This document shows positions 2,607 to 59,963 of a DNA stretch of 64,000 bases, one piece after another; the first letter of the stretch is position 1; every line of letters begins with the position of its first letter. The notes below the pieces were generated by a model. The model worked only from the letters and a program-made list of their open reading frames with translations, searched no databases and was not told the DNA's origin. The position numbers were made by a program, and so were the translations under genes. This stretch comes from Bacillota bacterium (GTDB lineage Bacteria > Bacillota > Ch66 > Ch109): contig JBMNLH010000001.1 in the NCBI GenBank assembly GCA_050952625.1, forward strand, positions 512,001-576,000, in the 5' to 3' direction.

Positions 2607-4510
2607 GTGCGCCTGGCATGGGCGCAGTCTAACGGGTGAAAGTCCCTAGTGCGGGTTGATAGTGCCAAGCACATAGCCAAGGACAAGGGTGTCCATCGCG
2701 AGGTGGAATCTGAAGGAAGTCGGCGGCAAACTTCTGGTCTGACGAACAGAAATCACATTAGGCATCGTAAGCTGGGTAAGGTTGCAATACAAACTGAAGC
2801 CCGAAACTATCCGGAAGCTTACGGTGTAGATGTGGCAGATAGATGGAAGGAAAGACTGCGTTCTTACCCAGGGAGGCCTCACGGACAGGTGGAAACGGAG
2901 TATGAAACCTGGTTGAAACAAGATTTATCGTGAGGAGTCAGCAGAGGCCATAGTACAGAGGTGTTCTAGACACCGACGGAAGGGCTGAACCAAAGGAGGT
3001 GTGGGTCAATGAAAGTTACTGAAAGTGGCAATTTAAAACACAGACAACTTTGCTTTGAAGACTATCTGCAAATGGTATCTGCGGAACAGAGAGAGTATGC
3101 AGAAGTGTGCGCGCCACCTAAGATGACTGAAACCGACAGCACCAACACAAACCAGCAGAGGGAAGGATTGCTAGAGCAAATCTTGAGTAGGGATAATCTG
3201 AACCGTGCCTACAAACAGGTAAAAAGAAACAAAGGCGCAGGTGGAATTGACGGAATGCAGGTAGATGAACTTCTCCCCTTCCTCAAGGAAAACAAGAATG
3301 AACTCGTGCAATCCCTCCAGGAGGGTAAATACCGTCCTAAACCCGTGCGTAGAGTAGAAATACCCAAAGAGAACGGGAAAACCAGAAAACTAGGGATACC
3401 AACCGTCGTAGACAGACTAATCCAACAAGCCATTTGTCAGATTCTTAGCCCAATCTTCGAGAAACGATTTTCAGACAACAGCTTTGGATTCCGACCGAAA
3501 AGAAGCACCCATGACGCGCTCAAAAGATGCCAGACCAACATTACAGAGGGTTACAAATGGGTAGTCGATATAGACCTGGAAAAGTATTTTGATACGGTCA
3601 ACCAGAGCAAACTCATCCAAATATTATCGGAGACGATAAAGGACGGACGGGCTATTTCGCTTATACACAAATTTCTGCGAGCAGGGGTTATGGTAAGCGG
3701 ATTGTTTGAAGACAGCCCCCAGGGAGTGCCGCAAGGCGGCCCCACTAAGTCCGCTACTTGGGAATATCATGCTAAATGAGTGTGACCATGAACTGGAGAG
3801 ACGCGGACATCGGTTTGTGCGTTATGCTGATGATTTGCTGATTTTCTGTAGGAGCAAGAAAGCGGCAACACGTACATTAACCCACATTCTCCCATACATT
3901 GAAGGAAAATTATTCCTAAAGGTGAATCGGGAGAAAACACAGGTGGCATACGTGAACAAAGTCAAATACCTGGGGTACGGCTTCTACATCTACAAAGGAG
4001 AAGGGAGACTCAGGATACATCCCAAGAGTGTCCAGAAATTAAAAGACAAGATTCGGGAAGTTACAGGACGCAGTAACGGGATGGGAATCGAGGCAAGAAA
4101 ACTCCGATTGAACCAGATTGTCCGAGGATGGACAAATTACTTCAAACTGGCAGATGCAAAGAAGCTGATACCGGGTCTGGATGAATGGATCAGAAGCCGA
4201 ATAAGGATGGTAACATGGAAACGATGGAAGAAAGTCCGCACCCGCTTCGAGAATCTCAAACGCTTGGGAATCAAGGAAGAACAAGCATGGATGTGGGCAA
4301 ATACAAGAAGAGGCTATTGGCGTACTGCCCATAGCCCAATCCTGTTAATAGCCTTATCCAATGAGAAGCTCAAGCGTGCTGGATACCTTAGCTTGACGGA
4401 ATGCTGCTCTGTGAAGTAAAGTGTAAACTTTGGAACCGCCGTATACCGAACGGTACGTACGGTGGTGAGGGAGGTCGGCTACTCAAATAATGGGTAGCCT
4501 CCTACCCGAT
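2607..4510 (+). mobile_element. Group II intron, class IIC
   Basis: 5' GTGCGCC at 2607. Domain V GAACCGCCGTATACCGAACGGTACGTACGGTGGTG at ~4433-4467, domain VI, and 3' end CCTACCCGAT at 4510. Inserted just after a terminator hairpin. Confidence 0.93.
3009..4419 (+). pseudogene. ltrA: Group II intron reverse transcriptase/maturase, frameshifted near 3740
   Basis: RT motifs RKLGIPTVVDR, PQGG and YADD plus maturase domain, no endonuclease domain. An extra C in GGCGGCCCCACTAAGT breaks PQGGPLSPLL. Confidence 0.9.
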
Positions 4511-4594: not shown

Positions 4595-4683
4595 TGGTGC
4601 CGGAGACCGGGGTCGAACCGGTACGATCTTGAAGGATCGCGGGATTTTAAGTCCCGTGCGTCTGCCAATTCCGCCACTCCGGC
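4595..4683 (-). tRNA. tRNA-Leu(TAA)
   Basis: GCCGGAGTGGCGGAATTGGCAGACGC...CTTAAAA..., long variable arm, GGTTCGAC, CCA end. Confidence 0.95.
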
Positions 4684-4715
4684 GTTCATATTATTTTTAT
4701 GCTTAGGAAGTATAA

Positions 4716-4790
4716 TGGAGGCGCCATCCGGATTTGAACCGGAGAATAAAGGATTTGCAGTCCTCTGCCTTACCACTTGGCTATGGCGCC
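4716..4790 (-). tRNA. tRNA-Cys(GCA)
   Basis: GGCGCCATAGCCAAGTGGTAAGGC...CTGCAAA...GGTTCAAATCC...TCCA. Confidence 0.95.
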
Positions 4791-4794
4791 ATAA

Positions 4795-4869
4795 TGGAGC
4801 GGAAAACGGGATTCGAACCCGCGGCCCTCGCCTTGGCAAGGCGATGCTCTACCACTGAGCTATTTCCGC
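4795..4869 (-). tRNA. tRNA-Gly(GCC)
   Basis: GCGGAAATAGCTCAGTGGTAGAGC...TTGCCAA...GGTTCGAATCCC...TCCA. Confidence 0.95.
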
Positions 4870-4910
4870 AAGAAAATGGAGATGTAGATCTCCATTAGAT
4901 TTAACCAAAA

Positions 4911-4986
<76 letters not shown>

Positions 4987-4990
4987 AAAA

Positions 4991-5067
4991 TGGCGGAGCT
5001 GACGGGAGTCGAACCCGCGGTCTCCTGCGTGACAGGCAGGCATGTTAGGCCTCTACACCACAGCTCC
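4991..5067 (-). tRNA. tRNA-Asp(GTC)
   Basis: GGAGCTGTGGTGTAGAGGCCTAAC...CTGTCAC...GGTTCGACTCCC...GCCA. Confidence 0.95.
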
Positions 5068-10724: not shown

Positions 10725-12116
10725 ATGAGGCTTAATGATTTGAGTCTAAAAGATCATTGGCTCAAACGGAATTGGCCCGCTTTTGTCTTAACGATAATTC
10801 TGCTGGGTACGTTCGTTTGGGGACTCACACAGTATCGGGCGAAAACTCAGTTAAATACTTTTGTGGAGAACAGTTATCAACGTTCTTTTTACGAAATGAT
10901 CCAGAACGTCGAAAACGTGGAGGTTCTGCTGGCGAAAGGGCTGGTCTCGAATTCGCCTCGCCAAAATATCGTCTTGTTTTCGAATGTTTGGCGGGAGGCA
11001 TATTCCGCTCAAGAAAAGCTAAGCCAGTTACCTATTGCCCATGAATTAATTGAGCGGACTTCTAAGTTTTTGAATCAGATCGGTGATTTTAGTTTTACAC
11101 TGGCCCGTCAGATTGCGGATAAGCAAGACCTTTCCGCGGAACAGCGCAATAGTCTGCAGAGTTTGCAAAAAGAGGCGGATTTTTTGTCCACCGAGCTTCA
11201 TGCCTTGCGGAACAGTATCGGAACCAATCAATTTGCCTGGGCCGATATGCGCCAAACCGGGACCGCCAAGTTTCGTGAAGTGGCCCCGCAGCTATCTGAA
11301 GTTAGTTTTCAAAAGATAAATACCCAAATAGAGGGAACACCAACTTTAATCTACGATGGCCCTTTCTCTGATCATATTAATCAGATGAAACCGCTGGGCG
11401 TTACCGGCGAGGCAATTTCAGCTGAAGAAGCGGCGCGAATTGCCATGGAAAAAGCCGATCTCTTGCCCAATGTTCAATATACTCCGACTCAGATGGGAAC
11501 CGGGGAAGGAACTATCCCCATCTACCGGATTCATATTACCCCATCTCAGGGACAGACTCAGGACCAAATTATTATGGATATTAGCCAAACCGGGGGTCAT
11601 GTCGTTACTTACCTGAATTCTCGGCCTGTGGAGGGAGTCGGCTTAAATGGGGTTCAGGCTCAGGAAAAGGCAATCGATTACTTAAAGAAAAAGGGTTTTC
11701 CAGACCTTACGGTTACCTATGCGCAGGTGGATGATAGTTCGGCCACGATCGCTTTTGCCGGGGTGCTGGACGGAGTGATTCTTTATCCTGACCAAATCAA
11801 AGTTAAGGTGGCCTTGGATAATGGGCAGATCATCGGCGTGGATGCCCTGGGCTACCTGATGTCGCATCATCCACGCCAGTTAGTCAAACCCCGAGTGTCG
11901 GAAGATGAGGTACGGACCCAGGTGGCAGATCGCTTAAACATCGAACACGTTCGCCAGGCAATCATCCCCTTGGAGACTCGGCGGGAGGTTCAATGTTGGG
12001 AAGTAAAGGGTAATTGGCAGGAAGAAGACTTCTATCTTTACTATAATGTGCTTGATGGGAACGAAGAAAAGATCTTAAAGGTAATCAAGACGCCTCAGGG
12101 GCCGCTGACTGTATAG
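10725..12116 (+). CDS. ypeB: Germination protein YpeB
   Basis: ENSYQRSF, PTLIYDGPFSDH, YPDQIKVKVALDNG. Confidence 0.93.
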   Translation: MRLNDLSLKDHWLKRNWPAFVLTIILLGTFVWGLTQYRAKTQLNTFVENSYQRSFYEMIQNVENVEVLLAKGLVSNSPRQNIVLFSNVWREAYSAQEKLSQLPIAHELIERTSKFLNQIGDFSFTLARQIADKQDLSAEQRNSLQSLQKEADFLSTELHALRNSIGTNQFAWADMRQTGTAKFREVAPQLSEVSFQKINTQIEGTPTLIYDGPFSDHINQMKPLGVTGEAISAEEAARIAMEKADLLPNVQYTPTQMGTGEGTIPIYRIHITPSQGQTQDQIIMDISQTGGHVVTYLNSRPVEGVGLNGVQAQEKAIDYLKKKGFPDLTVTYAQVDDSSATIAFAGVLDGVILYPDQIKVKVALDNGQIIGVDALGYLMSHHPRQLVKPRVSEDEVRTQVADRLNIEHVRQAIIPLETRREVQCWEVKGNWQEEDFYLYYNVLDGNEEKILKVIKTPQGPLTV

Positions 12117-12152
12117 TCAGCTTATGGAAGCGGTTTTAGTGGCAGAAAAGGA

Positions 12153-12216
12153 GTGAGCTCGTCCAGCTTCGCTGAACATCGCAGCTTCAGGTAGAGAATC
12201 TACTCCACCTGAAGTT
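12153..12216 (+). repeat. Dispersed repeat family A copy
   Basis: GTGAGCTCGTCCAGCTTCGCTGAACATCGCAGCTTCAGGTAGAGAATCTACTCCACCTGAAG. Confidence 0.8.
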
Positions 12217-12327
12217 GTTTGTGTATTGTGCATTTGTGTATCTGTGTATCTGTTTGCGCGGAAGGAATCTCATGTGTTAAGATTGAAATAATTTACTGGC
12301 ATATTTTACATATAAGGGCGTGATGTT

Positions 12328-12798
12328 GTGCTTGGACCAAACCGGGAAGTCGAGATTTATACAGATGGTGCCTGTTCTGGCAATCCTGGGCCAGGGGGCT
12401 GGGCCGCGGTCCTGATCTACGGAGAAAAGAAGCGGGAAATTTCGGGCTATAGCGAGTATACAACTAATCAGCGAATGGAGCTCCAGGCCGCTATTGAAGG
12501 GCTCAAAGCCCTAAAGTATTCCTGTCAAGTAAAATTGTACAGCGATAGTGCCTATCTAATTAATGCTTTTACTAAAAACTGGCTTTTAAAGTGGCAGCAA
12601 AATGGGTGGCTTAACGTAAAAAAAGAGCCGGTAGAGAACCAGGATCAGTGGCAGATCCTGCTCGAACTAGCTCGTAAACATGAGGTTAATTGGATTAAGG
12701 TCCAGGGTCACGCAGATAATGAATATAACAATCGGTGTGATCAATTAGCCCGGTCTGCCATCGAGGCTAAGGCCGGGGTAGATCAGCGAAACGACTGA
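12328..12798 (+). CDS. rnhA: Ribonuclease HI
   Basis: YTDGACSGNPGPGG, TTNQRMEL, WIKVQGH, N.RCD.LA. Confidence 0.95.
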   Translation: MLGPNREVEIYTDGACSGNPGPGGWAAVLIYGEKKREISGYSEYTTNQRMELQAAIEGLKALKYSCQVKLYSDSAYLINAFTKNWLLKWQQNGWLNVKKEPVENQDQWQILLELARKHEVNWIKVQGHADNEYNNRCDQLARSAIEAKAGVDQRND

Positions 12799-12804
12799 GA
12801 TCAT

Positions 12805-13554
12805 CTAGCGGCTCCATTCGCCCATGGTCAATAATTCGGAAACAGTTACAAAACGATAGCCTTGTTCCTTTAGACCATTAATAATGGTGGGCAGGGCATC
12901 AACGGTCTGTTTACAGGTGTCGCTAGCGTGCATTAAGATAATATCGCCTGGATGAGCTCTGGCCAGCACACGTTTCGTAATTGCCTCAATTCCGGGATTT
13001 TTCCAGTCCAGAGAATCAGTCCCCCATTGGATAACTTGATAACCGCACTCATTCGCCGCCATAATGACGTGATCGGCATAGTCCCCATTCGGCGTACGGA
13101 TTAGTTTTGGAGAAGTACCGGTCACTTCCTGCAGGATATTATGCGCCTGCATTATTTCTTGTTTGATTTCATCTGGCTGGAGTGTACTCAAGTTGATGTG
13201 CCGTTGGCCATGGCTGGCTACCTCATGACCATTGTCAGCGATCCGGCGCGGAATCTCCGGGTACTTTTGGGCCCAGGGACCGGACAAAAAGAAGGTTGCT
13301 TTTACTTGGTTTTCTTCCAAGATATCCAGGACCGGTGTGGGCGTCTGAGTTCCCCAGCTAATATCAAAGGTCAGGGCTAAAACCTTTTCGCTGGTTTTTA
13401 CTTCGTAGATGGGCTTAATGCGGCTGGTTGCCTGGACATAGACAATGCTGGCACTTATTACGATCAAGGATAGACTTAGAGCAATGATCAATTTAGCCCG
13501 AGTGGATAGGGGATAGAAACAGAGGACTTTCACCAAAGGAACCTCCTTTTGCAT
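12805..13554 (-). CDS. pdaB: Polysaccharide deacetylase family sporulation protein
   Basis: ALTFDISWG, ATFF, EVASHG, RTPNG, IILMHASD. Confidence 0.85.
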   Translation of the reverse strand: MQKEVPLVKVLCFYPLSTRAKLIIALSLSLIVISASIVYVQATSRIKPIYEVKTSEKVLALTFDISWGTQTPTPVLDILEENQVKATFFLSGPWAQKYPEIPRRIADNGHEVASHGQRHINLSTLQPDEIKQEIMQAHNILQEVTGTSPKLIRTPNGDYADHVIMAANECGYQVIQWGTDSLDWKNPGIEAITKRVLARAHPGDIILMHASDTCKQTVDALPTIINGLKEQGYRFVTVSELLTMGEWSR

Positions 13555-18967: not shown

Positions 18968-19003
18968 ATCTTTTGTTATAGATAATATAGGAGTCTTAAC
19001 GTT

Positions 19004-19128
19004 TAAGAAGAAGCCATCCGCTTCTCACCTTACGGTATCTCCAGGATTGCTGGTAAGGTTTTAGAATGTATTACTTTTTGATATGGAAGTAGTATCGTTT
19101 AGCGGGTGGAAAATTCTCCCGCTTTTTT
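19004..19128 (+). promoter_or_regulatory. Ribosomal protein L20 leader
   Basis: AAGAAGAAGCCATCCGCTTCTCACCT...GCGGGTGG...CCCGCTTTTT upstream of infC-rpmI-rplT. Confidence 0.8.
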
Positions 19129-19159
19129 ATTTTTAAATAATGGGTGGAGGTGGCGTCAC

Positions 19160-46476: not shown

Positions 46477-47586
46477 TCAAGAGCAGAGACTTTTGAGTAT
46501 AAAATAAGTGGACACTCCAGCCAAAAACCCGATCGCTGGGCTAAGTGCTATGCTAAGAACAACTACTCCGGCAAAGATAAACAACTCTTGATTATCTTCA
46601 GTTTTGATTGGTTTTATCAGATCTAGTCCACTATAAAAAAGCATCCCGCCTAAAACTGCCGAAGGAATAATCTGCAACATCTGCAAACCGGATGAACCTA
46701 AGAATAACCCGATAAACAGGAGTATCAAGCCGATAATAAAAGTGGAATATCCAGTTCTGGCCCCGAAACGATGATGGGCAGCCAATCCCCCACTGCCGTG
46801 ACATACCGGCACCATGCCCAATGGTGCACCTAGCAGGTTGCCAATCCCCAGAGTCAAACACAGGTTTTTATTGCTGACCCGTTCAGAGGTATCAGGGAAT
46901 AGCTGGCTAGCTAAAAAAGTAGTGACCAAGACAGAATTGGTTAAAGTTAGCGGCAATTGAGGCAGGGCAGCTTGAAAGAAGCCTCGGTAAAAATCATTCC
47001 AACCGGGCAACACCGGGTGGGGCAGGTTAAAGGCCCAATGTAAAGAGAGACGGCTGAGTTCCGGATGCAGGATGAATGATAAGGCCGTGCCCAAGACAAG
47101 GGCAACGATAGAGGCCGGAAAACGGCGATTCTTCATCAAGACTAGCATTATTAATAGAATGAGTATGCCTATTAGCCAATCACTGCTCACCATTTTCATA
47201 CCTAACATGGCTAAGCTAATGCCTAATCCGGTCTGAATACCAATAGTGACACTGGTAGGGGTGATCCTGGCCAATTTTTCGATCAGGCCGGTCACGGCAA
47301 TTATTAGCAGTAGCACACCAATTAAAATACCGGACGCCGCAATTTCTGCGGCTGTAAGATGATGGATAATAATAGCCGCCCCAACTACCTTCATGGGTTG
47401 AACCGGGATGGGCACCCGATAAAACCAAGCTGTGGCAAGATACATCAAGCCAAACATGACTAAGACGCTGGTTACATCCAAATTAGCGATGGTAATTGCT
47501 CCGATGACATAAGGAAGAAAAGTACCCAAATCGCCAACGGAACCGGCTAATTCACCACTTATATTATTTACTTTCGGTAATTTCAT
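46477..47586 (-). CDS. Putative sulfate/molybdate transporter (MOT1 family)
   Basis: ELAGSVGDLGT.LP, PVQPMK, CHGSGGLAAHHRFGART. Confidence 0.88.
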   Translation of the reverse strand: MKLPKVNNISGELAGSVGDLGTFLPYVIGAITIANLDVTSVLVMFGLMYLATAWFYRVPIPVQPMKVVGAAIIIHHLTAAEIAASGILIGVLLLIIAVTGLIEKLARITPTSVTIGIQTGLGISLAMLGMKMVSSDWLIGILILLIMLVLMKNRRFPASIVALVLGTALSFILHPELSRLSLHWAFNLPHPVLPGWNDFYRGFFQAALPQLPLTLTNSVLVTTFLASQLFPDTSERVSNKNLCLTLGIGNLLGAPLGMVPVCHGSGGLAAHHRFGARTGYSTFIIGLILLFIGLFLGSSGLQMLQIIPSAVLGGMLFYSGLDLIKPIKTEDNQELFIFAGVVVLSIALSPAIGFLAGVSTYFILKSLCS

Positions 47587-47700
47587 TTAATCCAAATCCT
47601 TTTGTATACCCGTATTTTCTAGTTGATCTATTATAACCTGGAGACAGCTGCTGGAGATCTAAGACAGATGATTAAATTTCGGGTACGGGCGCACCCTTAT

Positions 47701-47736
47701 TAATAAATACGGCGATGAAATCGCCGTATTTATTTT
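47701..47736. terminator. Hairpin terminator after the small Cys-rich gene
   Basis: AATAAATACGGCGAT-GAA-ATCGCCGTATTTATT. Confidence 0.7.
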
Positions 47737-47765
47737 GGTTTGCTTACTAAGTAATGATTACTTAA

Positions 47766-47897
47766 TTATTCTTCTTTTTGTTGGCAGGTGCACGTATTCC
47801 CTTTGCCGTGGCATTCTTCGATTTGTTCCGGACTACATTCGCCCGGCTTTCCTTGAAGTTTTTCCGGGTGTAGACAAATACTATCTTGTTGGCACAT
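47766..47897 (-). CDS. 43-aa Cys/His-rich small protein
   Basis: MCQQDSICLHPEKLQGKPGECSPEQIEECHGKGNTCTCQQKEE with perfect SD AAAGGAGGTGA. Not in the ORF track. Confidence 0.8.
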   Translation of the reverse strand: MCQQDSICLHPEKLQGKPGECSPEQIEECHGKGNTCTCQQKEE

Positions 47898-47992
47898 GAA
47901 TATCACCTCCTTTCTTTAAAAAACTCAGCAATCGGTTTTTGCCGTGACAGCACCACTAATCAGTAGGGAGGTGTATCCGACTAATCTGATTA

Positions 47993-49126
47993 TTATTTAA
48001 CTTGATTAATCACCGCCATGCACCCCTGGTTATAGAGATTCCGGGCAAAGCACTCAATACAGATATCCGCCCCGGTCGTTGTATGCGGAAACATGCTGCG
48101 GCTGCCAACTGCTATTCTTTTAATCCCCATCTGCGCGCCAATCGTATCCGTCGGAATATCCCGAAAATAACCAGAAAACGGGTAGGGTTTGTTTTCATCG
48201 TCATCCTCATAATAAAGGTAACCCTGAGGATAAGCCAAAAAGTGGTGCTTACCCATATACATGGCAAAAAACTGTAATTCGCCTTGCTCGTAGTGATACC
48301 AATCAACACGGTTATTACAGCGGGTAAAGGGTAGCGGAAAATCTTCCTCGCCCACTCCCTCAATCACGATCAAGGCAATCTTTTTCTGGGGAAGATTTTG
48401 TTCAATTAAGCCTCGAATCCCCGTAAGCTCAGCAGCTTGACCCAAATCAGTGGCAATCGGAATGTAAGCGTTGTGGGCCGGGATATTCACGGGTCTGCGC
48501 AGGGTTGTGCCGGGAACCTTATAAGTATAGCCTTCTTGAGCCACCACAAAATACTCCGGTAGCCGGGACGCCTCCGCCACGGTTCCCTCAAAAACTTCTA
48601 AGAGTTCCTTCTTGGTTACGACCCTCTGGATCTGAGGCAGACTGGCAATATACTTTAGATCTCTCTCACTGGCATGATGTAAACCCGCATAGCTGGCGGT
48701 CCAATTACTGGCGGCGGCCAGTCCGTCTAAATGACTAAAATCAATATACCCTCGGAGGGGGACTAAACCGCCTGTGCCAACAATAACCGGGGTAAATCCC
48801 GAACTGTGAACAAACCGGTCAATCTCCTGAAACACCGCCTCTATAATTTGCCGTTTATTTTCAGCCGATGTCTTGTAGAAACGAAACTGAAAGTAGGGTA
48901 AGCCGTAACTGATAAACGCGAATTGCGGATCATACTTGTCGATCAGATTCAGGGTGGTATCGGTTACCCAGGCATTGGTGGCCATTTCCACATCTCCGGG
49001 AAAAGGGTGCTTTGCCAGGATTCCTTTGACCATCTCAACGGTTGGGTCGTTCGTTTCAACCTTTTGGCCGGTCTTCAGGTCGAAAACCCTTTGCCATTCC
49101 CTAGCGTCAATTATGCCGATACTCAT
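47993..49126 (-). CDS. Hypothetical protein, possibly a permuted alkaline-phosphatase-superfamily fold
   Basis: ATG 49126 overlaps the radical SAM TGA, with SD GGAGGTG. Fold is inferred from motif resemblance only. Confidence 0.7.
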   Translation of the reverse strand: MSIGIIDAREWQRVFDLKTGQKVETNDPTVEMVKGILAKHPFPGDVEMATNAWVTDTTLNLIDKYDPQFAFISYGLPYFQFRFYKTSAENKRQIIEAVFQEIDRFVHSSGFTPVIVGTGGLVPLRGYIDFSHLDGLAAASNWTASYAGLHHASERDLKYIASLPQIQRVVTKKELLEVFEGTVAEASRLPEYFVVAQEGYTYKVPGTTLRRPVNIPAHNAYIPIATDLGQAAELTGIRGLIEQNLPQKKIALIVIEGVGEEDFPLPFTRCNNRVDWYHYEQGELQFFAMYMGKHHFLAYPQGYLYYEDDDENKPYPFSGYFRDIPTDTIGAQMGIKRIAVGSRSMFPHTTTGADICIECFARNLYNQGCMAVINQVK

Positions 49127-50130
49127 CAAGACACCTCCCTGGAGTGCCAATTGATTTTTTGGCCATGCAGTTTAATTTCCCGACCACAGGTTGGACATTT
49201 ATTCTCTAAGCACGAAAACTTAGCCAGTCGGTCTCCGCCGCAGCCAAGGCTCAATCGCTCAATCACCTCGGTCCCGCAGTCCGGGCAAATAGTGTTGACC
49301 CAATCGGAACCGACAAAGTTATGAAAATAGACGTATTGAAGTTTTTCTCTGACCAATTGCAAAACATCGTTAATCCGGTCAATGCTCGGATATTCAAATT
49401 CTTTCATCTTATACTCGGGCAGCAGACGGAAAACGTGAAAAGGTATCTCTCGATCAATTCCAGCCAGAAAAGTGGTCATTTCCTCAAGTTCGTGATCATT
49501 AATGGTTTGAATTATCGGCACGGTAACCTCAAGATGGTTGGTCGCGGCTAAACGCCGGATATTTCGCAAGACCGGTTCTCCGTTCTTTATCCCGATATAA
49601 TCGCGGTAAAATTCTGGAGACATCCCTTTAAGGCTAATATTAATGAAAGAAAAAATGCCGGCGATGATCTCCGTGGCCTCTTCCGTCATATAGGCATTAG
49701 TCAAACACCCCATAGGCATTCCAATGTCACGAGCAACTTGACTGACTTCAATCAGTGAAGGCAGTGAGACGGTAGGTTCATTAACGTTGAAGACTATATT
49801 ATGACAGCCTTGTTTTTGGGCCATTTTTACCAATTCTGCCGGGGTAAATTCAAACATGCCTTCCTGCTGTTTAGCCGGGTCTTCTTTGGCGACATAGGCA
49901 TTTGAACAATAGCGGCAAGCAAAATTACAGCTGCTGGTGCCAATGACCATACTGCGGCTGCCCGGATAGGCGTGATAGAAAGGGATAGATTCGATCTTGG
50001 AAATATTACAGGTTGACCATCGATTGGGAAAACGCTCCTTAACAAGTCCATTTTCCCCATAATACATTTTACAAACGCCAAATTTGCCTTCGTTTAATTC
50101 ACACCGCCATTCACAATAATTACATTGCAC
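49126..50130 (-). CDS. Radical SAM enzyme (AmmeMemoRadiSam/PflX-like)
   Basis: CNFACRYC motif, N-terminal CxxC..C..C, NEPT, C-terminal CPDC/CPTC. Confidence 0.9.
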   Translation of the reverse strand: MQCNYCEWRCELNEGKFGVCKMYYGENGLVKERFPNRWSTCNISKIESIPFYHAYPGSRSMVIGTSSCNFACRYCSNAYVAKEDPAKQQEGMFEFTPAELVKMAQKQGCHNIVFNVNEPTVSLPSLIEVSQVARDIGMPMGCLTNAYMTEEATEIIAGIFSFINISLKGMSPEFYRDYIGIKNGEPVLRNIRRLAATNHLEVTVPIIQTINDHELEEMTTFLAGIDREIPFHVFRLLPEYKMKEFEYPSIDRINDVLQLVREKLQYVYFHNFVGSDWVNTICPDCGTEVIERLSLGCGGDRLAKFSCLENKCPTCGREIKLHGQKINWHSREVS

Positions 50131-50965
50131 TCCTTACCATCTCCTTTTCCCGCATCTCTAGTTCATGCGTCAGGCAATCACAAAGATTACGTGGTACTAC
50201 TACCGGCAAACCGGCATTTGTCGCGTCTAGCCGGATATTTTCTCCCAGGGCCTGCCTCAGATGGGTATCTTTCATGATTTTTTCCGTTAATCCTTGAATC
50301 ACGACCCGCCCCTGTTTGAGCATAATGATTTCATCGCAGTAATACAGAGCCAGATTGGGATCATGCAGCGTTATCAAGGCAGTTACCCCGCGTTGCTTCA
50401 CCACTTGCTTCATCAATTCCATCATGCGGTGCTGATTACAAAAATCCAAATGGGAATTGGGTTCGTCCAGGAGCATCAGCGGAGTATCTTGATAAAGGGC
50501 TCTGGCTAATAAAACCATTTGCTGTTGGCCGCCTGACAGTTTATTGTACTGGGCTGAGGCCAGTTCGCTAATACCGACCTCAGCCATTACTTTATACGCT
50601 TTCTGCCTTTCACTTTTCCCGGGAGAGGCCCAGGCTTTCAACCTAGCGGCACTCCCCATCAGAACTATATCCAGGACCGGAAAGGCGAAAACGGAATAGC
50701 TGCTTTGTGGGACAACGCTAATAAGTTGGGCTACTTGAACCCGACTTAACCGGTTAACATCCTTACCCATTACTGTGATCCGGCCACGATCGGGCTTAAT
50801 AATAGCGTTGATACAGTTCATCAACGTTGTTTTTCCCGAGCCGTTATGCCCCAATAATCCACAAATTCGTCCTTGACTCACCCAGGTATTAATCTCTTTC
50901 AGAACTGGTTCCCGGCCATATCCAGCAGTAAGGCCAGTTATTTTAATAGCCACTTTTTGCTGCAC
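50120..50965 (-). CDS. ABC transporter ATP-binding protein (FepC/BtuD type)
   Basis: GHNGSGKT, LSGGQ, LLDEP, TLHD. Confidence 0.93.
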   Translation of the reverse strand: MQQKVAIKITGLTAGYGREPVLKEINTWVSQGRICGLLGHNGSGKTTLMNCINAIIKPDRGRITVMGKDVNRLSRVQVAQLISVVPQSSYSVFAFPVLDIVLMGSAARLKAWASPGKSERQKAYKVMAEVGISELASAQYNKLSGGQQQMVLLARALYQDTPLMLLDEPNSHLDFCNQHRMMELMKQVVKQRGVTALITLHDPNLALYYCDEIIMLKQGRVVIQGLTEKIMKDTHLRQALGENIRLDATNAGLPVVVPRNLCDCLTHELEMREKEMVRSAM

Positions 50966-51965
50966 CGCCCTTTCTGCTTATTATCAGATAGCCCAAAAAT
51001 GGTGCGCCGAAGAGCGAGGTAATAATACTAATCGGTATTTCCGAGGCTGTAACTGTTCGGGCAAAAGTATCCATCAGTAGCATAAAACTGCCTCCTAAAA
51101 ACGCGGCCGCTGGAATCAGTCTTTTATGTTCAGTACCGACCAAAAAACGGGCGATGTGAGGCATGATCAGGCCGACCCATCTTATCTCGCCGACGGTTGC
51201 CACGGCGGAAGCGACAATCAAGGTGCTTATCCCTAAGTAAAAGAGACGCCATCTCTTAATGTTAACCCCTAAAGATAAAATTTCTTTTTCATCCTGGGTC
51301 ATAATGTTTAAACGCCAACTGAAAATGCAAAGGATAATGGAACCGATGATAATAATCGGCAGGGTGATCTCGACTTTTGGCCAACTGCTGGTTTGAAAGC
51401 TGCCCATGGTCCAGAACATGATTTTCGCTAATTGGGTGTATGGATCTGAAATATACTGAAGAATTGATAACCCTGCCTGGAAAATGGCACTAACCACGAT
51501 TCCCGAGATTACTAAGACTGACGCGGATTTATCCCAACTCCGGGTCCCCAATAGAAAAGTAATGCCGACAGCTAAAACGCCAAAACAGAAGGCGGAAAGC
51601 TGAATCCCCATGGCCATTTCGGTTATTAAAACGATACTCAGGGCTGCGCCAAAAGCTGAACCGGATGATACTCCCAAAATATCAGGGCTGGCTAAGGGAT
51701 TACGGAACAGGGCCTGAAAAATAACCCCGGCAATAGCGATGCCGCATCCTACCGCAAAAGCCATAATTATCCTGGGTAAACGAACATTCCAAAATACAAT
51801 TGCTGAATTCTCGATCGGGGCATCTAATATGCCCTTAATCCCTAACTTAGCGAAAAGGATACTGCCTAACTCAGCAAAGCTAATGGCATAACGCCCTACG
51901 CTCAAGGACACGATTAGAGAGAGGATAAAAACAATAATCAGGATAATCCAGATTTTTCTTTGCAC
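50943..51965 (-). CDS. FecCD/BtuC family ABC permease
   Basis: VRLPRI, FRNPLASPDILGVSSG, VGLIMPH. Confidence 0.93.
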   Translation of the reverse strand: MQRKIWIILIIVFILSLIVSLSVGRYAISFAELGSILFAKLGIKGILDAPIENSAIVFWNVRLPRIIMAFAVGCGIAIAGVIFQALFRNPLASPDILGVSSGSAFGAALSIVLITEMAMGIQLSAFCFGVLAVGITFLLGTRSWDKSASVLVISGIVVSAIFQAGLSILQYISDPYTQLAKIMFWTMGSFQTSSWPKVEITLPIIIIGSIILCIFSWRLNIMTQDEKEILSLGVNIKRWRLFYLGISTLIVASAVATVGEIRWVGLIMPHIARFLVGTEHKRLIPAAAFLGGSFMLLMDTFARTVTASEIPISIITSLFGAPFLGYLIISRKGGAAKSGY

Positions 51966-52010
51966 AGAAATTCCTCCGGTTGGTTTTTGCCGATTTAACC
52001 CTTGACGTGA

Positions 52011-53045
52011 CTAGAGTTTTCCACCCATTTCTGTGAAAGAATGGCCATAGCATTTCGTATAGAATTCATTGGCTTTCTCTAACATGTCAATGTCCGCAAA
52101 TTTTTCAGGATAGAAAGTTTTGCTCAGCCATAACACACCCAACACACAGTTAGGAGCCGGGAAATCCCACCAGCCAATGTTAGACGGCATGCTGTAAACC
52201 TTTTTCTCCTGAACTGCTTTCACTGTTTGGAAGTGTGGATTTTTATATACCTGTTGGTCGCCATAAGTATCCAGGGAAGAACCCAAAACTATGACCTCAG
52301 GATTCCAGGTAGCCACTTGCTCAGGAGATACCTCGGTCCAATATCCTTTAATATCTTTTGAGACACTCACGGCCCCAGCTAATTCGATTAATTTAGTAGT
52401 CAGCATATCTCCACTGGCCACCGTATAGACACTCTTGGGACCGGCAAACATTATCCGTGGCTTTTCATCTTCCGGGACATTGCCAACTCTCTGGTTAACC
52501 AATTCTAAAATATTTTGGCAGTAGGCAAGATATTCCTCACCTCGGTCCGGACAATTTAATACTTTGGCGATCAATCTTACCGCTTCAAAAGCTTCCTCAA
52601 AAGTCTCACCATTTACTGCAACCACCTTGATCCCCGCACTTTCAAACTGGTCAATCATAGACGCATCGGAAGAAGCATAAACGAAAGCCACCTGGGGTTG
52701 GAGGGCGATTAATTCTTCCATATTAAGGCCCATGCCCTCTGAAAGATAGGGTTTAGCAGCGTAAACTGGATCAACCGAGCCTATTGCCTTACCTAAATTG
52801 CCATAGATTGCCTGATCAACGAGTTTGTCCTGTTGCCCTAGCGCAAAAGCAATGTGGGCGGCAAAATGGTGGGTCCCGGTAATTTTGGTAACATCTTTCG
52901 GCACAGTCACGGTTCTGCCTAACTGATCAGTAACGGTGATTGTGGCTCCTTTCGGTGCCATTGCTTCATGAGCACAGCCACTGAGCATTAAACTCAAGAT
53001 TAAGACCATCACTGTAAATAAAGATAAACGCGATTTTTTCCGCAA
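52011..53045 (-). CDS. Periplasmic-binding-2 family substrate-binding lipoprotein
   Basis: Lipobox LSGC, TDQLGRTV.VP, WWD.P, K.FYPEKF. Confidence 0.9.
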   Translation of the reverse strand: MRKKSRLSLFTVMVLILSLMLSGCAHEAMAPKGATITVTDQLGRTVTVPKDVTKITGTHHFAAHIAFALGQQDKLVDQAIYGNLGKAIGSVDPVYAAKPYLSEGMGLNMEELIALQPQVAFVYASSDASMIDQFESAGIKVVAVNGETFEEAFEAVRLIAKVLNCPDRGEEYLAYCQNILELVNQRVGNVPEDEKPRIMFAGPKSVYTVASGDMLTTKLIELAGAVSVSKDIKGYWTEVSPEQVATWNPEVIVLGSSLDTYGDQQVYKNPHFQTVKAVQEKKVYSMPSNIGWWDFPAPNCVLGVLWLSKTFYPEKFADIDMLEKANEFYTKCYGHSFTEMGGKL

Positions 53046-53338
53046 AATACTTCAGCTCCTTTTTAAATTCTTAACTACCCGTTTTTTAAGTAACCCATCG
53101 AATCATCCTGGCGGCAAATACACAGGGTTGCTGATTCTTTAGTTTTCGGTTAAAAAACCAACTATCCAGATAAATGCAACTTGAAATCAGAACTGTAATT
53201 AATCTAAAATAATAACCTAAAATAATTCCTCCTTTCTTGTTGCCCTCTTGGCCGTAGGGATTAATTTGTAAGAAATAAAAAAGGCCAACTTTGCAAAGAA
53301 AAGCAAAGCTGACCCACCAGCCTATAAATTTTAACTTG

Positions 53339-53450
53339 CTCTCCTTTCCAAACACGGGAGGCGCAGCCGTTTCCAGCTACACCCTTCGGCTCAGCAGCCT
53401 TGCCAAAAATAGGTTTGTAAATATGGTTTAGGCTAAAGAACTCGGAGATA
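53339..53450 (-). promoter_or_regulatory. Moco-family riboswitch, P3-lacking (Wco-type), upstream of the ABC/radical SAM operon
   Basis: TCTCCGAG...CCTAA...GCCGAAGGGTGTAGCTGGAAACGGCTGCGCCTCCCGTGTTTGGAAAGGAGAG, followed by a terminator-like hairpin and U-run. Confidence 0.88.
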
Positions 53451-53585
53451 TAAAATTGTCTTATGTTTAATTGGGTTATTTGATTAATTGAACTACTACA
53501 GTAAGGTTATTTATAATTGTTAAGATGATAACTTGTAAAAGCAAAAATAATAATTATGGCTTTTTCTAGATTCCTGATCATCTTT

Positions 53586-53669
53586 ATTCGACACGAAAAC
53601 ATGAATTCCTGCAATTTCCCAATTAAATTTGTTTAAAGCAAAGCAGGATTTTGGCGAATTTAATCGAAT
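53586..53669. promoter_or_regulatory. Back-to-back SigH-type promoters
   Basis: Minus: GCAGGAATTCATGTTTTCGTGTCGAAT (53586-53612). Plus: GCAGGATTTTGGCGAATTTAATCGAAT (53643-53669). Confidence 0.6.
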
Positions 53670-53697
53670 TAAGCATCTATTAAAATATATATTATCA

Positions 53698-53792
53698 GCT
53701 CACCGAGCCTGCCGCCTAAGTCTTAAGATATGGCTACCAGGCCAATGGGTACAAGAGGAAACTTTTGTGCCTCCCGTTTTGGAAAGGAGGGC
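53698..53792 (+). promoter_or_regulatory. Moco-family riboswitch, P3-lacking (Wco-type), upstream of tsaA-fmdE/modD
   Basis: CACCGAG...CCTAAG...GGCCAATGGGTACAAGAGGAAACTTTTGTGCCTCCCGTTTTGGAAAGGAGG. Confidence 0.88.
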
Positions 53793-53849
53793 TTTTTTTG
53801 TCTGAGACATAACAAAGCTATGCCTTTTTTTAGCATAGCTTTAATTGTT

Positions 53850-53922
53850 TTACCTGAATCAGACTGGTGGAGTAGAGTCTCCATCTGCAGCCTCAATTTT
53901 CAGCGAAGCTGAACGATTTCAC
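53850..53922 (-). repeat. Dispersed repeat family A copy within the riboswitch leader
   Basis: GGTGGAGTAGAGTCTCCATCTGCAGCCTC...CAGCGAAGCTGAACGATTTCAC. Confidence 0.8.
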
Positions 53923-53973
53923 AATGAGAAAGTAAATTTAGTTAAAACACTGCGTAAATTATTATAAAAAGGA

Positions 53974-54798
53974 ATGATAAAAACAATGACAGAGTCTATC
54001 AAGCTAACTCCAATTGGCCGAGTGCATAATGATTATATTGATCCTGCCCAACCCAGAGTATCGGTCATGCAATCTACGATTGAGGTATTCCCCGAATATG
54101 CAGAGGGCTTACTGCGGTTGGATGAACATTCCCATATCTGGTTACTTGGTTGGTTCCATCTGTCCCAAAGGGATGTGCTTCGGGTTGTTCCCCGAATGAA
54201 TAAAGAGCTTGGGGAATATGGAGTGTTTGGCCTGAGGACCTTTAGCCGGCCAAATCCCATTGGGCTCACCGTTGTCAAATTGGAAAGTATCCAGGGAAAT
54301 ATGCTGACCGTCTCCAATCTTGATTTTATCAACGGCACTTTTATTCTAGATATTAAACCTTATTATGATCAAGATATTATTTTTTCGCCAATTCTCCCCT
54401 ATATCAAACCGACTGATCCTAACACACTGGAAGCCATATTGATGAAGAAGGCTCTGAACCACCACGGAGAAAAATGCGCCCAATTGATGATCGCCGTGAA
54501 AATGGCTGTGCTGGCGGAAAAAGAGTTTGGCCTGCTGACGGCACATGATCTTAAAGTCTCGGTGACCGGTTCCCGATGTTTGGGAGATGCCTTGCAAGGA
54601 ATTACGTTAGCTAAGCTGGCCAATCCCAGTCGTTTTAAATTTGAGGAAAATGATGAACAGGCAATCTCGGTTTGGGAAAAGGGTAACCGGGCAATAATAA
54701 TTACATTTAAGGGCAATAAAGACGATCAAGCTCGTAATCAACTAACAGAATTACCGTCAGACCAGCAGTTTGAAATTCAGTATAAGGAAGGTGTCTAG
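53974..54798 (+). CDS. TsaA/TrmO-like SAM-binding domain fused to an FmdE-like domain
   Basis: PIGRV, GVFGLRT.SRPNPIGL, ILDIKPY, then HHGEKC...CLGDALQGIT. Confidence 0.82.
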   Translation: MIKTMTESIKLTPIGRVHNDYIDPAQPRVSVMQSTIEVFPEYAEGLLRLDEHSHIWLLGWFHLSQRDVLRVVPRMNKELGEYGVFGLRTFSRPNPIGLTVVKLESIQGNMLTVSNLDFINGTFILDIKPYYDQDIIFSPILPYIKPTDPNTLEAILMKKALNHHGEKCAQLMIAVKMAVLAEKEFGLLTAHDLKVSVTGSRCLGDALQGITLAKLANPSRFKFEENDEQAISVWEKGNRAIIITFKGNKDDQARNQLTELPSDQQFEIQYKEGV

Positions 54799-54800
54799 AA

Positions 54801-55646
54801 ATTATCTACTTTACCGAGGAGAGTATTGATAAGTTTATTAAAGAGGACACACCTTATTTAGATCTGACTACTCTAGTTCTGGATATTGCCGGGAAAAAAG
54901 GGAGAATAGAATATATTTGCCGGGAAGAAGCGGTGATTTGCGGGACTGAAGAGGTTGTAAGAATATTTAATAAGCTGAACATCAAGCCTTTACACTATCT
55001 TGCTTCTGGTTCTAAGGTCGGTCCCCGCACCAGTGTAGTCGCAGCAGAAGGTAATGCAGAGGACCTACACATGGCCTGGAAGGTGTCGATGAATATCTTA
55101 GAGTATGCATCAGGTATTGCCACCAGAACGTATCGAATCTTGAACAAAGCCCGACAAGCTAATCCCAAAATCGAACTTCTTGCCACACGTAAGGTTTTTC
55201 CAGGCACCAAGGAGTTGTCAATCAAGGCGGTGGTAGCCGGCGGAGGCCTTCCTCACCGGCTAGGTTTATCAGAAACGGTTCTTATCTTTCAGCAGCACTT
55301 AAATTTCATTGGCGGGGTTGAGGCACTAATCTCCAAGTTGGATGAACTCAAAGCAAGAATCATCGAAAAAAAGGTGTTCGTTGAAGTGGAGACAGTAGAA
55401 GACGCTTTGCGGTTATGCCGGGCCGGAGTGCATGGCCTGCAATTTGATAAAGTAGCTCCTGCGGAATTGACCAAAGCCGTTGAGCAGATCAGAGCTAATT
55501 ATGACAATGTTGTTCTTCTGGCGGCGGGCGGCATCAATGAAAACAATGCGGAAGCTTACGCCCAGACCGGGGTGGATGGGTTGATTACCTCGGCGGTGTA
55601 TTATGGTAAGCCGATTGATTTTGGGACAAGGATAGTCCAGCTTTAA
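54801..55646 (+). CDS. modD: ModD protein (NadC/QPRTase-like), probable ATT start
   Basis: IYFTEESIDKFIKEDTPYLDLTT N-terminus, SGIATRT, TRKVFPGTK, HRLGLSET, QFDK, AAGGIN. Confidence 0.88.
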   Translation: MIYFTEESIDKFIKEDTPYLDLTTLVLDIAGKKGRIEYICREEAVICGTEEVVRIFNKLNIKPLHYLASGSKVGPRTSVVAAEGNAEDLHMAWKVSMNILEYASGIATRTYRILNKARQANPKIELLATRKVFPGTKELSIKAVVAGGGLPHRLGLSETVLIFQQHLNFIGGVEALISKLDELKARIIEKKVFVEVETVEDALRLCRAGVHGLQFDKVAPAELTKAVEQIRANYDNVVLLAAGGINENNAEAYAQTGVDGLITSAVYYGKPIDFGTRIVQL

Positions 55647-55767
55647 AACCTTAGATGATGATGGAAAACATAAAAGCGAGTGCTACCACGCTGTTCTCGC
55701 CTCTTGGGAGAAAAGCAGGCAAATTCAAGACCCCTACTTCTATAAGGAAGTAGGGGTTGATTCTTGT

Positions 55768-59788: not shown

Positions 59789-59963
59789 CTCTTATCCAGA
59801 GAGGTGGAGGGATGGGCCCGATGAAACCCGGCAACCAGACAACTGAAGGGAACACAGCTCCAATCAGTCGTCCGCGGTGCCAATTCCCACAGAATACGTT
59901 TGTATTCTGATAGATGAGAGAAGGGCCGGCTGACTAAACCCCTTCTTAATCGAAGGGGTTTTT
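59789..59963 (+). promoter_or_regulatory. SAM-I (S-box) riboswitch with terminator
   Basis: CTTATCCAGAGAGGTGGAGGGA..GGCCCGATGAAACCCGGCAACC...GGTGCCAATTCC...GATGAG, then AAACCCCTTC/GAAGGGGTTTTT. Confidence 0.95.

Follow-up and report, generated by a model that had tools for sequence, protein, structure and literature searches.

The window analysed here comprises 64,000 nucleotides of a Bacillota genome (lineage Ch66; Ch109; assembly GCA_050952625.1, contig JBMNLH010000001.1, positions 512,001 to 576,000) and contains two divergent operons, each headed by a molybdenum cofactor (Moco)-family riboswitch, in which a type II ATP-binding cassette (ABC) importer is combined with a radical S-adenosylmethionine (SAM) enzyme, a 377-aa protein of a family without a name and proteins linked to molybdenum (Mo) and tungsten (W). 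This locus points to an unstudied route of W/Mo acquisition in anaerobic bacteria. In the reading that we prefer, and in which we place middling confidence, it is an acquisition module for W, possibly also for Mo, which would stand under negative feedback by the finished cofactor, import a complexed species and process it in the cytoplasm. As judged from gene order and natural fusions, the radical SAM enzyme and the 377-aa protein form one functional unit, and this pair appears to be the real novelty of the locus. The features are as follows, with coordinates of the window.

46477–47586, minus strand: MOT1-family (SulP-related) molybdate transporter homologue, 369 aa (PF16983 MFS_MOT1, 183.5 bits against a threshold of 30)
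47702–47734, no strand assigned: strong hairpin of 15 pairs 3' of the peptide gene, terminator of the left operon (hairpin scan)
47766–47897, minus strand: 43-aa Cys/His-rich peptide, with a ribosome-binding site
47926–47944, minus strand: weak terminator-like hairpin of 6 pairs followed by AGTTTTTTAA, between the genes for the 377-aa protein and the peptide
47993–49126, minus strand: 377-aa protein of a family without a name (no Pfam or NCBIfam match)
49126–50130, minus strand: radical SAM enzyme, 334 aa (PF04055 Radical_SAM, 65.1 bits; motif CNFACRYC)
50120–50965, minus strand: ABC ATPase of the heme/B12/siderophore-importer type (PF00005 ABC_tran, 104 bits)
50943–51965, minus strand: FecCD/BtuC-type permease of a type II ABC importer (PF01032, 285 bits)
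52011–53045, minus strand: lipoprotein substrate-binding protein of the MolA (HI_1472) clade (PF01497 Peripla_BP_2, 113 bits; lipobox LSGC)
53282–53315, minus strand: intrinsic terminator of 13 pairs with a T tract, directly after the left aptamer (expression platform)
53325–53459, minus strand: P3-less aptamer of the Moco/tungsten cofactor (Tuco) type heading the left operon (RF01055, 83.0 bits, E 1.2e-18)
53689–53805, plus strand: P3-less Moco/Tuco aptamer heading the right operon (RF01055, 74.7 bits, E 3.3e-16)
53813–53843, plus strand: hairpin with a T-rich tail after the right aptamer, likely a terminator (from reading the sequence; the scan lists the stem on the minus strand only)
53974–54798, plus strand: fusion of a TsaA/TrmO N-domain with an FmdE domain, 274 aa (PF01980, 105.8 bits; PF02663, 34 bits)
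54801–55646, plus strand: ModD (quinolinate phosphoribosyltransferase, QPRTase, fold), 281 aa if ATT 54801 is the start (TIGR01334, 187.8 bits for the 237-aa GTG form, 54933–55646)
55729–55758, no strand assigned: bidirectional terminator hairpin closing the right operon (hairpin scan)

Every element described in the first-pass annotation, which had been made from the letters of the sequence, was recovered at its coordinates by Rfam, Pfam and NCBIfam scans: the two divergent operons with a riboswitch at the head of each, the gene set of the left arm with the MOT1 gene beyond it, and the TsaA-FmdE fusion with ModD in the right arm. FecCD, Peripla_BP_2 and ABC ATPase proteins encoded in one operon make up a type II ABC importer of the BtuCD/FecCD class. 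The run of overlapping ends from the permease gene to that of the 377-aa protein was likewise borne out, with overlaps of 23 nt between permease and ATPase, 11 nt between ATPase and radical SAM enzyme and 1 nt (TGATG) between radical SAM enzyme and 377-aa protein, and we propose that the importer and the two enzymes are translationally coupled. An 89-aa open reading frame (ORF) at 53086–53355 was dropped as a gene because it overlaps the left aptamer and its terminator and belongs to no family.

When one genome per species was scanned, 136 loci were found to encode a relative of the 377-aa protein, and the best 80 of these were kept for all counts out of 80 given in the following. A radical SAM homologue (at least 50% identity) is encoded directly upstream of the 377-aa gene and on the same strand in 74 of the 80 loci; five of the remaining six have less than 300 nt of contig upstream, and only locus L021 truly lacks it. 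Moreover, seven of nine longer forms scanned (443–734 aa; clusters P0127, P0133, P0144, P0159, P0190, P0175 and P0186) have an N-terminal Radical_SAM domain followed by the 377-aa domain, and the other two (P0204 and P0215) gave no Pfam match. The gene-neighbourhood analysis suggested by the first-pass annotation was therefore positive, and it is because of this adjacency that the two proteins are considered one unit. Complex prediction for the two, with the Cys peptide as partner, returned a score of 0.00 and hence no answer, which speaks neither for nor against an interaction. The carriers belong to lineages of strict anaerobes (Syntrophomonas, Desulfosporosinus, Sporomusa and other Negativicutes, Geobacter/Pelobacter, Syntrophorhabdus, Smithella/Syntrophus, Acidobacteriota and Spirochaetota), and those in culture include Sporomusa ovata, S. 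acidovorans and Syntrophorhabdus aromaticivorans.

Neighbouring genes were counted from crude ORF calls in the 80 loci, which were clustered, each cluster being named by one Pfam-scanned representative. Parts of FecCD-type importers were found in 56 loci, TonB-dependent receptors in 37 and any gene of a TonB system in 45. FmdE-domain proteins occur in 32 loci, 17 of them as TsaA-FmdE fusions, DUF364 in 24, a cluster of SAM methyltransferases in 22, Metallophos in 16, and NTPase_1 and TP_methylase in eight each. As unambiguous Mo/W markers we counted ModA-like SBP_bac_11 with ModB, ModD, ModE (a helix-turn-helix domain, HTH, with two TOBE domains), MoeA, MoaE, MOT1 and the Moco riboswitch; such markers are present in 20 of the 80 loci, or in 21 if a TupA-like protein in L037 is included. 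In L008 and L022, too, the pair is followed by a MOT1 gene. Outside the lineages that bear the riboswitch, the link to Mo/W is by way of neighbouring mod, moe, moa and ModE genes.

An Rfam cmscan of the window gave 13 matches over threshold, two of which were to RF01055 (gathering score 36 bits), and the Infernal check with the Rfam Moco model that the first-pass annotation had proposed thereby located the motif at both leaders. The two aptamers lie back to back with 229 nt between them and cover model positions 1–135; the P3 columns are deleted in both alignments, which places both in the P3-less ("Tuco") subclass. RF01055 occurs in seven copies in the whole genome, all seven of them P3-less. 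In the part of Regulski et al. (2008; PMC2408646) consulted, 58 of 176 Moco RNAs lack P3, the occurrence of the P3-less ones follows that of tungsten use, the element from E. coli acts as an OFF switch, and at least 15 copies are counted for Syntrophomonas wolfei. For Eubacterium limosum, the sections of PMC11725836 consulted place P3-less riboswitches before WOR1, tupABC, focA and two "Fe ABC-type" transporters (fetABC1/2), which the authors read as iron uptake; the operon of one of these transporters, with a terminator platform, rose under W limitation. By this report, the background statement of the first-pass annotation, in which canonical Mo/W uptake was assigned to type I importers and chelated metals or cofactors usually to type II importers, was amended to take in riboswitch-led "Fe ABC-type" transporters that respond to W limitation. 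The two Tuco-type riboswitches support a tie of the locus to Mo/W, while the ligand of the riboswitches themselves is what we infer to be the tungsten cofactor.

To survey the loci, a covariance model was built from nine riboswitches, seven from this genome and two from L001, a Syntrophomonas relative, and it gave nine matches in six of the 80 loci, those in L001 being matches by construction. A Moco riboswitch directly precedes the pair-bearing operon in three loci of two phyla (L001, L003 and L079). In L079, from Syntrophales, the riboswitch-led operon has the order TonB-dependent receptor, ATPase, permease, two substrate-binding proteins, radical SAM enzyme, 377-aa protein and Metallophos. 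Among eight diverse loci scanned with Rfam, a riboswitch was found only in L001, and no cobalamin or other riboswitch was over threshold.

The ATPase and permease of the window have their best NCBIfam matches among heme, B12 and siderophore transporters. In a comparison with the Protein Data Bank (PDB), the substrate-binding protein matched 4hn9 (1e-38) and, over its full length, MolA (3psa/3psh, 2.7e-33; query 38–337 against chain 4–323); its best solved relatives are two structural-genomics proteins and MolA from Haemophilus influenzae. According to the parts consulted of PMC4031551 and bioRxiv 10.64898/2026.10.15.759412, MolA binds molybdate and tungstate and MolBC-A is an established type II importer of a small substrate, and in the latter ligand contacts are assigned to K221 and R264, and a place in the pocket to Y114 and Y301. 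In a HMMER alignment (counted with an offset of 21), the counterparts of K221, R264, Y114 and Y301 of MolA in the window protein are D, T, S and F, at an identity of about 30% that makes small register errors possible in this mapping. Among 20 orthologues (at least 45% identity), the K221 column holds E, Q or D and the R264 column T, S, A or V, never Lys or Arg, and because of these columns the oxyanion pocket of MolA does not seem to be kept, which leans away from MolA-style binding. The loss of this pocket together with the TonB receptors leads us to lean toward a different, possibly bulkier or complexed imported species. In WtpA-type proteins carboxylates can ligate W/Mo directly, and the window protein could therefore also take a bare oxyanion.

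It is in the light of these residues that a plain oxyanion importer, similar to MolBC-A and of low affinity, has to be weighed, in which case the radical SAM/377-aa pair would be co-expressed to mature the cofactor or formate dehydrogenase and would leave the imported species untouched. The full-length resemblance to MolA, the precedent of MolBC-A and the MOT1, ModD and TupABC-like genes counted in the same regulon all fit such an importer. We nevertheless consider it rather unlikely, since Lys and Arg never occupy the K221 and R264 positions in the orthologues, TonB-dependent receptors lie in the same operons (e.g., L079), a lobe of the binding protein is found joined to a paralogous radical SAM enzyme (see below) and the pair joins importer genes, in 56 of 80 loci, far oftener than genes of cofactor biosynthesis.

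An importer of an iron chelate, or that of another metal, which is merely co-regulated with the demand for tungsten would agree with the usual ligands of Peripla_BP_2/FecCD systems, with the heme, B12 and siderophore transporters matched best by ATPase and permease, and with the large need for iron of radical SAM and W/Mo enzymes; it is also how the E. limosum "Fe ABC-type" transporters were read in the part of PMC11725836 consulted. Against this explanation, ModE, ModABC, ModD, MoeA, MoaE and MOT1 adjoin the pair in unrelated lineages, FmdE-domain genes are present in 32 of 80 loci, and no iron-specific gene was noticed in the clusters, no search for Fur boxes having been made. We regard it as very unlikely.

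In the radical SAM enzyme, the CX3CX2C core (C68/C72/C75) is invariant in 21 sequences, and the protein has in addition invariant N-terminal cysteines (C3/C6/C10/C20) and a C-terminal Cys-rich ribbon. The nearest named family is TIGR04337 (AmmeMemoRadiSam), with 147.1 bits, below the curated cut-off of 220, and no functional study of this family was found in the literature. TIGR04317, the radical SAM maturase of a tungsten cofactor oxidoreductase, scored 34.1 bits against a cut-off of 380. No SPASM family is among the Pfam matches of the enzyme, and no solved relative was detected by sequence in the PDB at E ≤0.001. A cluster of 599-aa proteins (599–613 aa) found in four loci (e.g., L029:1035–2834; also L036 and L079) combines a full-length paralogue of the radical SAM enzyme, 32% identical to the window enzyme over residues 1–327 with both Cys-rich ends included, with a domain homologous to the C-lobe of the window binding protein (26% identity, E 2e-20). 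No description of this architecture, a radical SAM enzyme with a MolA-clade C-lobe, was seen. As a paralogous radical SAM enzyme is thus joined to a cytoplasmic binding-protein lobe, this fusion is the best hint that the enzyme family works on the species carried by the binding protein, and that the enzyme pair may act on the transported ligand.

For the 377-aa protein, 488 homologues were obtained at E ≤0.001; most of those listed are about 45–53% identical, the nine closest are 71–97% identical, and none of the 120 listed homologues carries a Pfam domain or is informatively named. Cluster representatives, searched exhaustively, gave 122 clusters for the family. At the sequence level, none of 18 family members matched PF01663 at E 10 and nothing else relevant appeared in Pfam at that value, and a profile of the family against PDB sequences gave only chance-level matches (E ≥0.2). 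An AlphaFold model computed from 46 diverse sequences reached a pLDDT of 93.3 and a pTM of 0.93 and replaced an earlier model from 18 sequences (pLDDT 74), with which only weak matches had been obtained. With Foldseek, all 20 of the matches listed up to rank 26 were members of the alkaline phosphatase (AP) superfamily, phosphonoacetate hydrolase (PhnA) being on top (E 8e-6, TM about 0.4). The VIA aligner, which works independently of Foldseek, was run against 48,161 chains and also placed PhnA first (1ei6, Z 10.2, 222 residues, rmsd 3.8), followed by ENPP6, ENPP7, ENPP4, the Xanthomonas nucleotide pyrophosphatase/phosphodiesterase (NPP), SPAP, ENPP1 and PafA (Z 8.8–7.3) and then by unrelated proteins such as helicases (Z ≤6.2). 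Similarly, 29 of 30 feature neighbours in a language-model atlas (Atlas) are PF01663 clusters. PhnA and the NPP/ENPP proteins of PF01663 (ENPP6/7/4, Z 8.2–8.8) are thus the best structural matches; in contrast to them, the 377-aa protein, which is only 10–16% identical to its AP-fold matches, gives no Pfam match (18 of 18 members at E 10), is matched to the AP fold in part, over model residues 1–246/293, and carries residues 294–377 as an extra. Residues D45, D156, E256, H348, D354, E358 and C359 are conserved in the family, and the most conserved stretch (S344, H348, D354, E358, C359 and R362) falls outside the structurally matched part. From this model, the protein is called a divergent, possibly rearranged AP-superfamily fold of NPP/PhnA type.

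These nearest folds bear on salvage of a cofactor or pterin, by which Moco/Tuco, a dinucleotide form (MGD/MCD) or a precursor would be imported, trimmed by the AP-fold protein and repaired or remodelled at the pterin by the radical SAM enzyme. Nucleotide pyrophosphatases/phosphodiesterases (ENPP4/6/7 and Xac NPP, Z 7.9–8.8) and the PF01663 feature neighbours would suit such a trimming reaction, the imported product would itself be the riboswitch ligand, and TonB receptors in 37 of 80 loci fit a ligand of more than 1 kDa. Nucleotide-handling neighbours also recur (Metallophos, 16; NTPase_1, 8; a deaminase-fold cluster), and weak matches to the SUOX fold (Oxidored_molyb) occur in TP_methylase fusions and in neighbouring riboswitch-led operons of this genome. 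The 377-aa protein, on the other hand, is without the N-terminal part of the AP fold that bears the NPP nucleophile and gives no PF01663 signal even at E 10, and the binding protein falls in the MolA clade. MoaC was present in 43 of 43 carrier genomes tested, which also fits the link to Mo/W, and, as the genome studied here has MoaC and two MoeA genes, no auxotrophy would drive salvage. On balance, we consider salvage unlikely.

In the right arm, the N-domain of the TsaA-FmdE fusion matches TIGR00104 with 115.5 bits against 93.25, and the C-terminal domain of TrmO is absent, its half of the protein being occupied by the FmdE domain (PF02663, threshold 22.9 bits), so that the fusion is not a full TrmO/TsaA protein. 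Its motifs HHGEKC and C-L-G-D-A-L-Q keep three of the four FmdE metal ligands (H, C, C), which in the portion of PMC2954224 consulted are named as His/His/Cys/Cys, and His17 is changed to Glu. The 237-aa form of ModD exceeds the TIGR01334 cut-off (178.85 bits), and its match begins at profile position 45. Homology extends upstream of GTG 54933 to ATT 54801, behind a good ribosome-binding site, AAGGAAGG, and the upstream frame reads IIYFTEESIDKF... The start of ModD is therefore likely to be the non-canonical ATT 54801, which would give a protein of 281 aa and restore the N-terminal 44 profile positions; standard ORF calling shortens ModD by 44 residues. At the other end of the locus, MOT1 is probably a transcription unit of its own, without a riboswitch of its own, because the strong hairpin at 47702–47734 lies between it and the peptide gene.

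The 43-aa peptide has invariant residues C8, C21, C29, H30 and C38 and a core motif PEKLxGKPxECSPEQIxECHG. Homologues are encoded directly after the 377-aa gene in L001–L004 and L018, that is, in five of 80 loci, and a large protein database contains only nine clusters, in one of which (P0245) the motif is duplicated in tandem. The peptide is probably a lineage-specific extra, perhaps a small metal-binding accessory. A radical SAM gene near a gene for a small Cys-rich peptide could also indicate a biosynthetic cluster in which the pair makes a metallophore or modifies the peptide in the manner of ribosomally synthesized and post-translationally modified peptides (RiPPs), the loaded product being re-imported by the ABC system. 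SAM methyltransferases (22/80) and DUF364 (24/80) are nearby in other loci, and one DUF364 enzyme cyclises a SAM derivative according to the part of PMC12930334 consulted. The peptide, however, is restricted to the few loci and clusters mentioned and looks like a repeatable metal-binding module and not like a leader and core, the window contains no exporter and no further biosynthetic genes, and the pair accompanies importers and not a fixed biosynthetic set; a biosynthetic cluster appears highly improbable. The first-pass annotation had inferred a system that imports and processes a Mo/W chelate or pterin cofactor or else makes a metallophore. Its tie to Mo/W is strengthened by the two Tuco-type riboswitches and by the markers in 20 of 80 loci, whereas the making of a metallophore is disfavoured by the lack of an exporter and of further biosynthetic genes in the window and by the presence of the peptide in only five of 80 loci.

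The preferred reading, a W/Mo acquisition module under feedback by the finished cofactor, can be put as the following sequence of steps. When the tungsten-pterin cofactor is plentiful, it would bind to both P3-less aptamers and the adjacent terminators would halt transcription; when it is scarce, both operons would be transcribed. The MolA-clade lipoprotein would then capture a W/Mo species outside the cell, binding it in a way other than that of MolA, and the type II importer would bring it in. Inside the cell, the radical SAM enzyme and the AP-fold 377-aa protein would act as a unit, most likely by converting a carrier form or releasing the metal from it, and the TsaA-FmdE protein, with its His/Glu/Cys/Cys metal site, and ModD would probably handle the metal downstream, toward MoeA and the pterin. 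In relatives with a double membrane, the same core is joined to a TonB-dependent receptor with ExbB, ExbD and TonB. More tentatively, and with correspondingly less confidence, we suggest that this may be the first dedicated pathway for the uptake of carrier-bound W/Mo. The carrier might then be the pterin cofactor, a thio-metal species or an organic compound (a "tungstophore/molybdophore"), and the pair would break it down inside the cell through hydrolysis and radical chemistry.

Several findings weigh against this reading. The nearest characterised relative of the binding protein, MolA, binds bare molybdate and tungstate, and the usual ligands of the Peripla_BP_2/FecCD family are iron chelates, heme and B12. 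In the 377-aa protein, the fold match pairs model residues 1–246 with PhnA 136–407, so that the AP fold is covered in its C-terminal two thirds only, and a canonical nucleophile or set of metal ligands was not identified, for which reasons its enzymatic activity is not certain. In the DNA covered, 60 of the 80 loci have no unambiguous Mo/W marker, and a Moco riboswitch is missing from 74 of the 80, among them the close Desulfosporosinus locus L002. Of the conditions under which the first-pass annotation would have given up its reading, a failure of the homologues to co-occur does not apply, as the pair is adjacent in 74 of 80 loci, whereas the lack of a Mo/W riboswitch context does hold for the 74 loci without a Moco riboswitch; the riboswitch link is lineage-specific, recurring in two phyla but exceptional. 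A search of 40 sampled relatives of this genome, five being of its own taxonomic family, turned up no homologue of the 377-aa protein, and the module is therefore accessory and patchily distributed. Finally, another P3-less riboswitch of the genome heads a TupABC-like operon, so that a second tungstate route is not obviously needed.

The genome (2.9 Mb, nine contigs, 95.9% complete) encodes, besides MoaC and MoeA, three molybdopterin oxidoreductases, two of them with an in-frame TGA, and neither ModA (TIGR01256) nor an N-domain of aldehyde ferredoxin oxidoreductase (AOR) was found in it. On account of these oxidoreductases and the missing AOR N-domain, formate dehydrogenases are likely to be the users of the cofactor in this organism.

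The stretch was recovered in digester and bioreactor metagenomes. Contigs from RNA libraries of two studies cover parts of every gene, with carry-over of DNA possible, and are weakly compatible with expression of the genes of the locus. One metatranscriptome run has a 237-nt contig (47736–47973) over the peptide gene, ending beside the hairpin at 47702–47734; its word depth was 45, compared with 2–4 for the other locus contigs of that run, a contig depth that cannot rank genes. In the leader at 53063–53219, RNA contigs from two runs of one study, 95–99% alike, replace 155 nt with 58 other letters, and because of this exchange the part of the leader that separates the terminator from the binding-protein gene is considered variable.

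Further riboswitches were seen in this genome and in the loci of relatives. Just past the right end of the window (G000:C1:577831–601000; L083 and L085), P3-less riboswitches at C1:579331 and C1:587699 head operons for large exported proteins (1232, 475 and 1643 aa) and ExbB/ExbD-like genes, with weak Oxidored_molyb (SUOX-fold) matches at C1:583596, 593812, 599030 and 600284; counting the pair of the window, four riboswitches lie within about 30 kb. At G000:C8:60285–60433 (minus strand; L087), RF01055 is matched more weakly (50.4 bits, P4 having an insertion) upstream of genes that resemble hypA, hypB and NiFe hydrogenase subunits on a reading of their N-terminal sequences, which suggests a possible cofactor-dependent switching between formate and hydrogen metabolism. 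The riboswitch at G000:C1:145478–145611 (minus strand; L084; 69.4 bits) has no same-strand ORF of at least 100 aa for about 5.8 kb downstream, is convergent with the gene of a 419-aa exported protein and has a 2.2-kb ORF-free stretch nearby. In L079, a Moco riboswitch (68–188) directly precedes an aldehyde dehydrogenase gene (291–1892; PF00171, 553 bits; Syntrophales), whose product may serve as a cofactor-independent back-up, kept repressed as long as the tungsten cofactor is available. In L001, a second riboswitch (11292–11411) follows the peptide gene and precedes a gene for a GAF-domain ABC ATPase (11963–13198, 411 aa). Elsewhere in the window, a group II intron (2692–4510; RF02001, 152.6 bits, RF01998 and RF00029) adjoins five tRNA genes (4598–5067, minus strand), and a ribosomal protein L20 leader (18999–19136, plus strand, 60.3 bits) and a SAM riboswitch (59789–59920, plus strand, 84.8 bits) were found.

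To our knowledge, known W/Mo uptake is limited to oxyanion pumps, namely ModABC, WtpABC, TupABC, MolBC-A and MOT1. The locus resembles MolBC-A of H. influenzae (HI1470/71 with MolA, HI1472) in transporter class, in the full-length similarity to MolA and in the link to Mo/W, and differs from it in the loss of K221/R264, in riboswitch control, in the radical SAM/377-aa pair and in the TonB-dependent receptor of diderm relatives. With riboswitch-led TupABC, ModABC and WtpABC it shares the feedback of the cofactor on metal uptake, but those are type I importers with PBP_like_2/SBP_bac_11 binding proteins and without processing enzymes. A radical SAM enzyme is paired with an AP-superfamily protein also in the anaerobic sulfatase-maturating enzyme (anSME) and its sulfatase; unlike that system, the pair described here has no detected SPASM domain, its conserved Cys lies in ECFARN and not in C/S-x-P/A-x-R, and it travels with importers. 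The fetABC1/2 operons of E. limosum are similar in that P3-less RF01055 elements precede ABC importers, one with a terminator platform; as the text consulted (PMC11725836) names neither protein families nor a radical SAM pair, they are likened by description only. FmdE (32/80), DUF364 (24/80) and ModD are Mo-linked proteins that recur around the pair. DUF364 and modD have already been tied to contexts of molybdate transport in the parts consulted of PMC2954201 and bioRxiv 10.1101/2024.03.05.583561, and a UPF0066-FmdE fusion architecture is listed in that of PMC2954224; neither the radical SAM/377-aa pair nor the whole unit is described in these portions of the three sources. The genome paper of Pelobacter carbinolicus mentions ligand-gated channels near molybdopterin riboswitches and tetrapyrrole methyltransferases (PMC3543383), and the consulted part of a paper on thiomolybdate (PMC11484787) contains no relevant genes. 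The first-pass annotation knew of no description of this gene set as a unit, and none was found in full-text literature, a search that leaves subscription journals and supplements outside, where one may exist.

The unit is compact, regulated and testable, and it is present in cultured hosts. Its binding protein lends itself to fishing for the ligand, and biochemical work on the enzyme pair is made easier by the natural fusions. The unit touches on the questions of how anaerobes are supplied with W/Mo in sulfidic, metal-poor habitats and of what FmdE, ModD and DUF364 do, and it allows the "iron transporters" that Tuco riboswitches control in gut Eubacterium to be read in another way. Because W/Se formate dehydrogenases are needed by the syntrophic fatty-acid oxidisers of digesters, the system may bear on the dosing of trace metals in biogas reactors. 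If the more tentative suggestion of a dedicated pathway for carrier-bound W/Mo is true, the locus would represent a W/Mo counterpart of siderophore or B12 uptake that is widespread in strict anaerobes.

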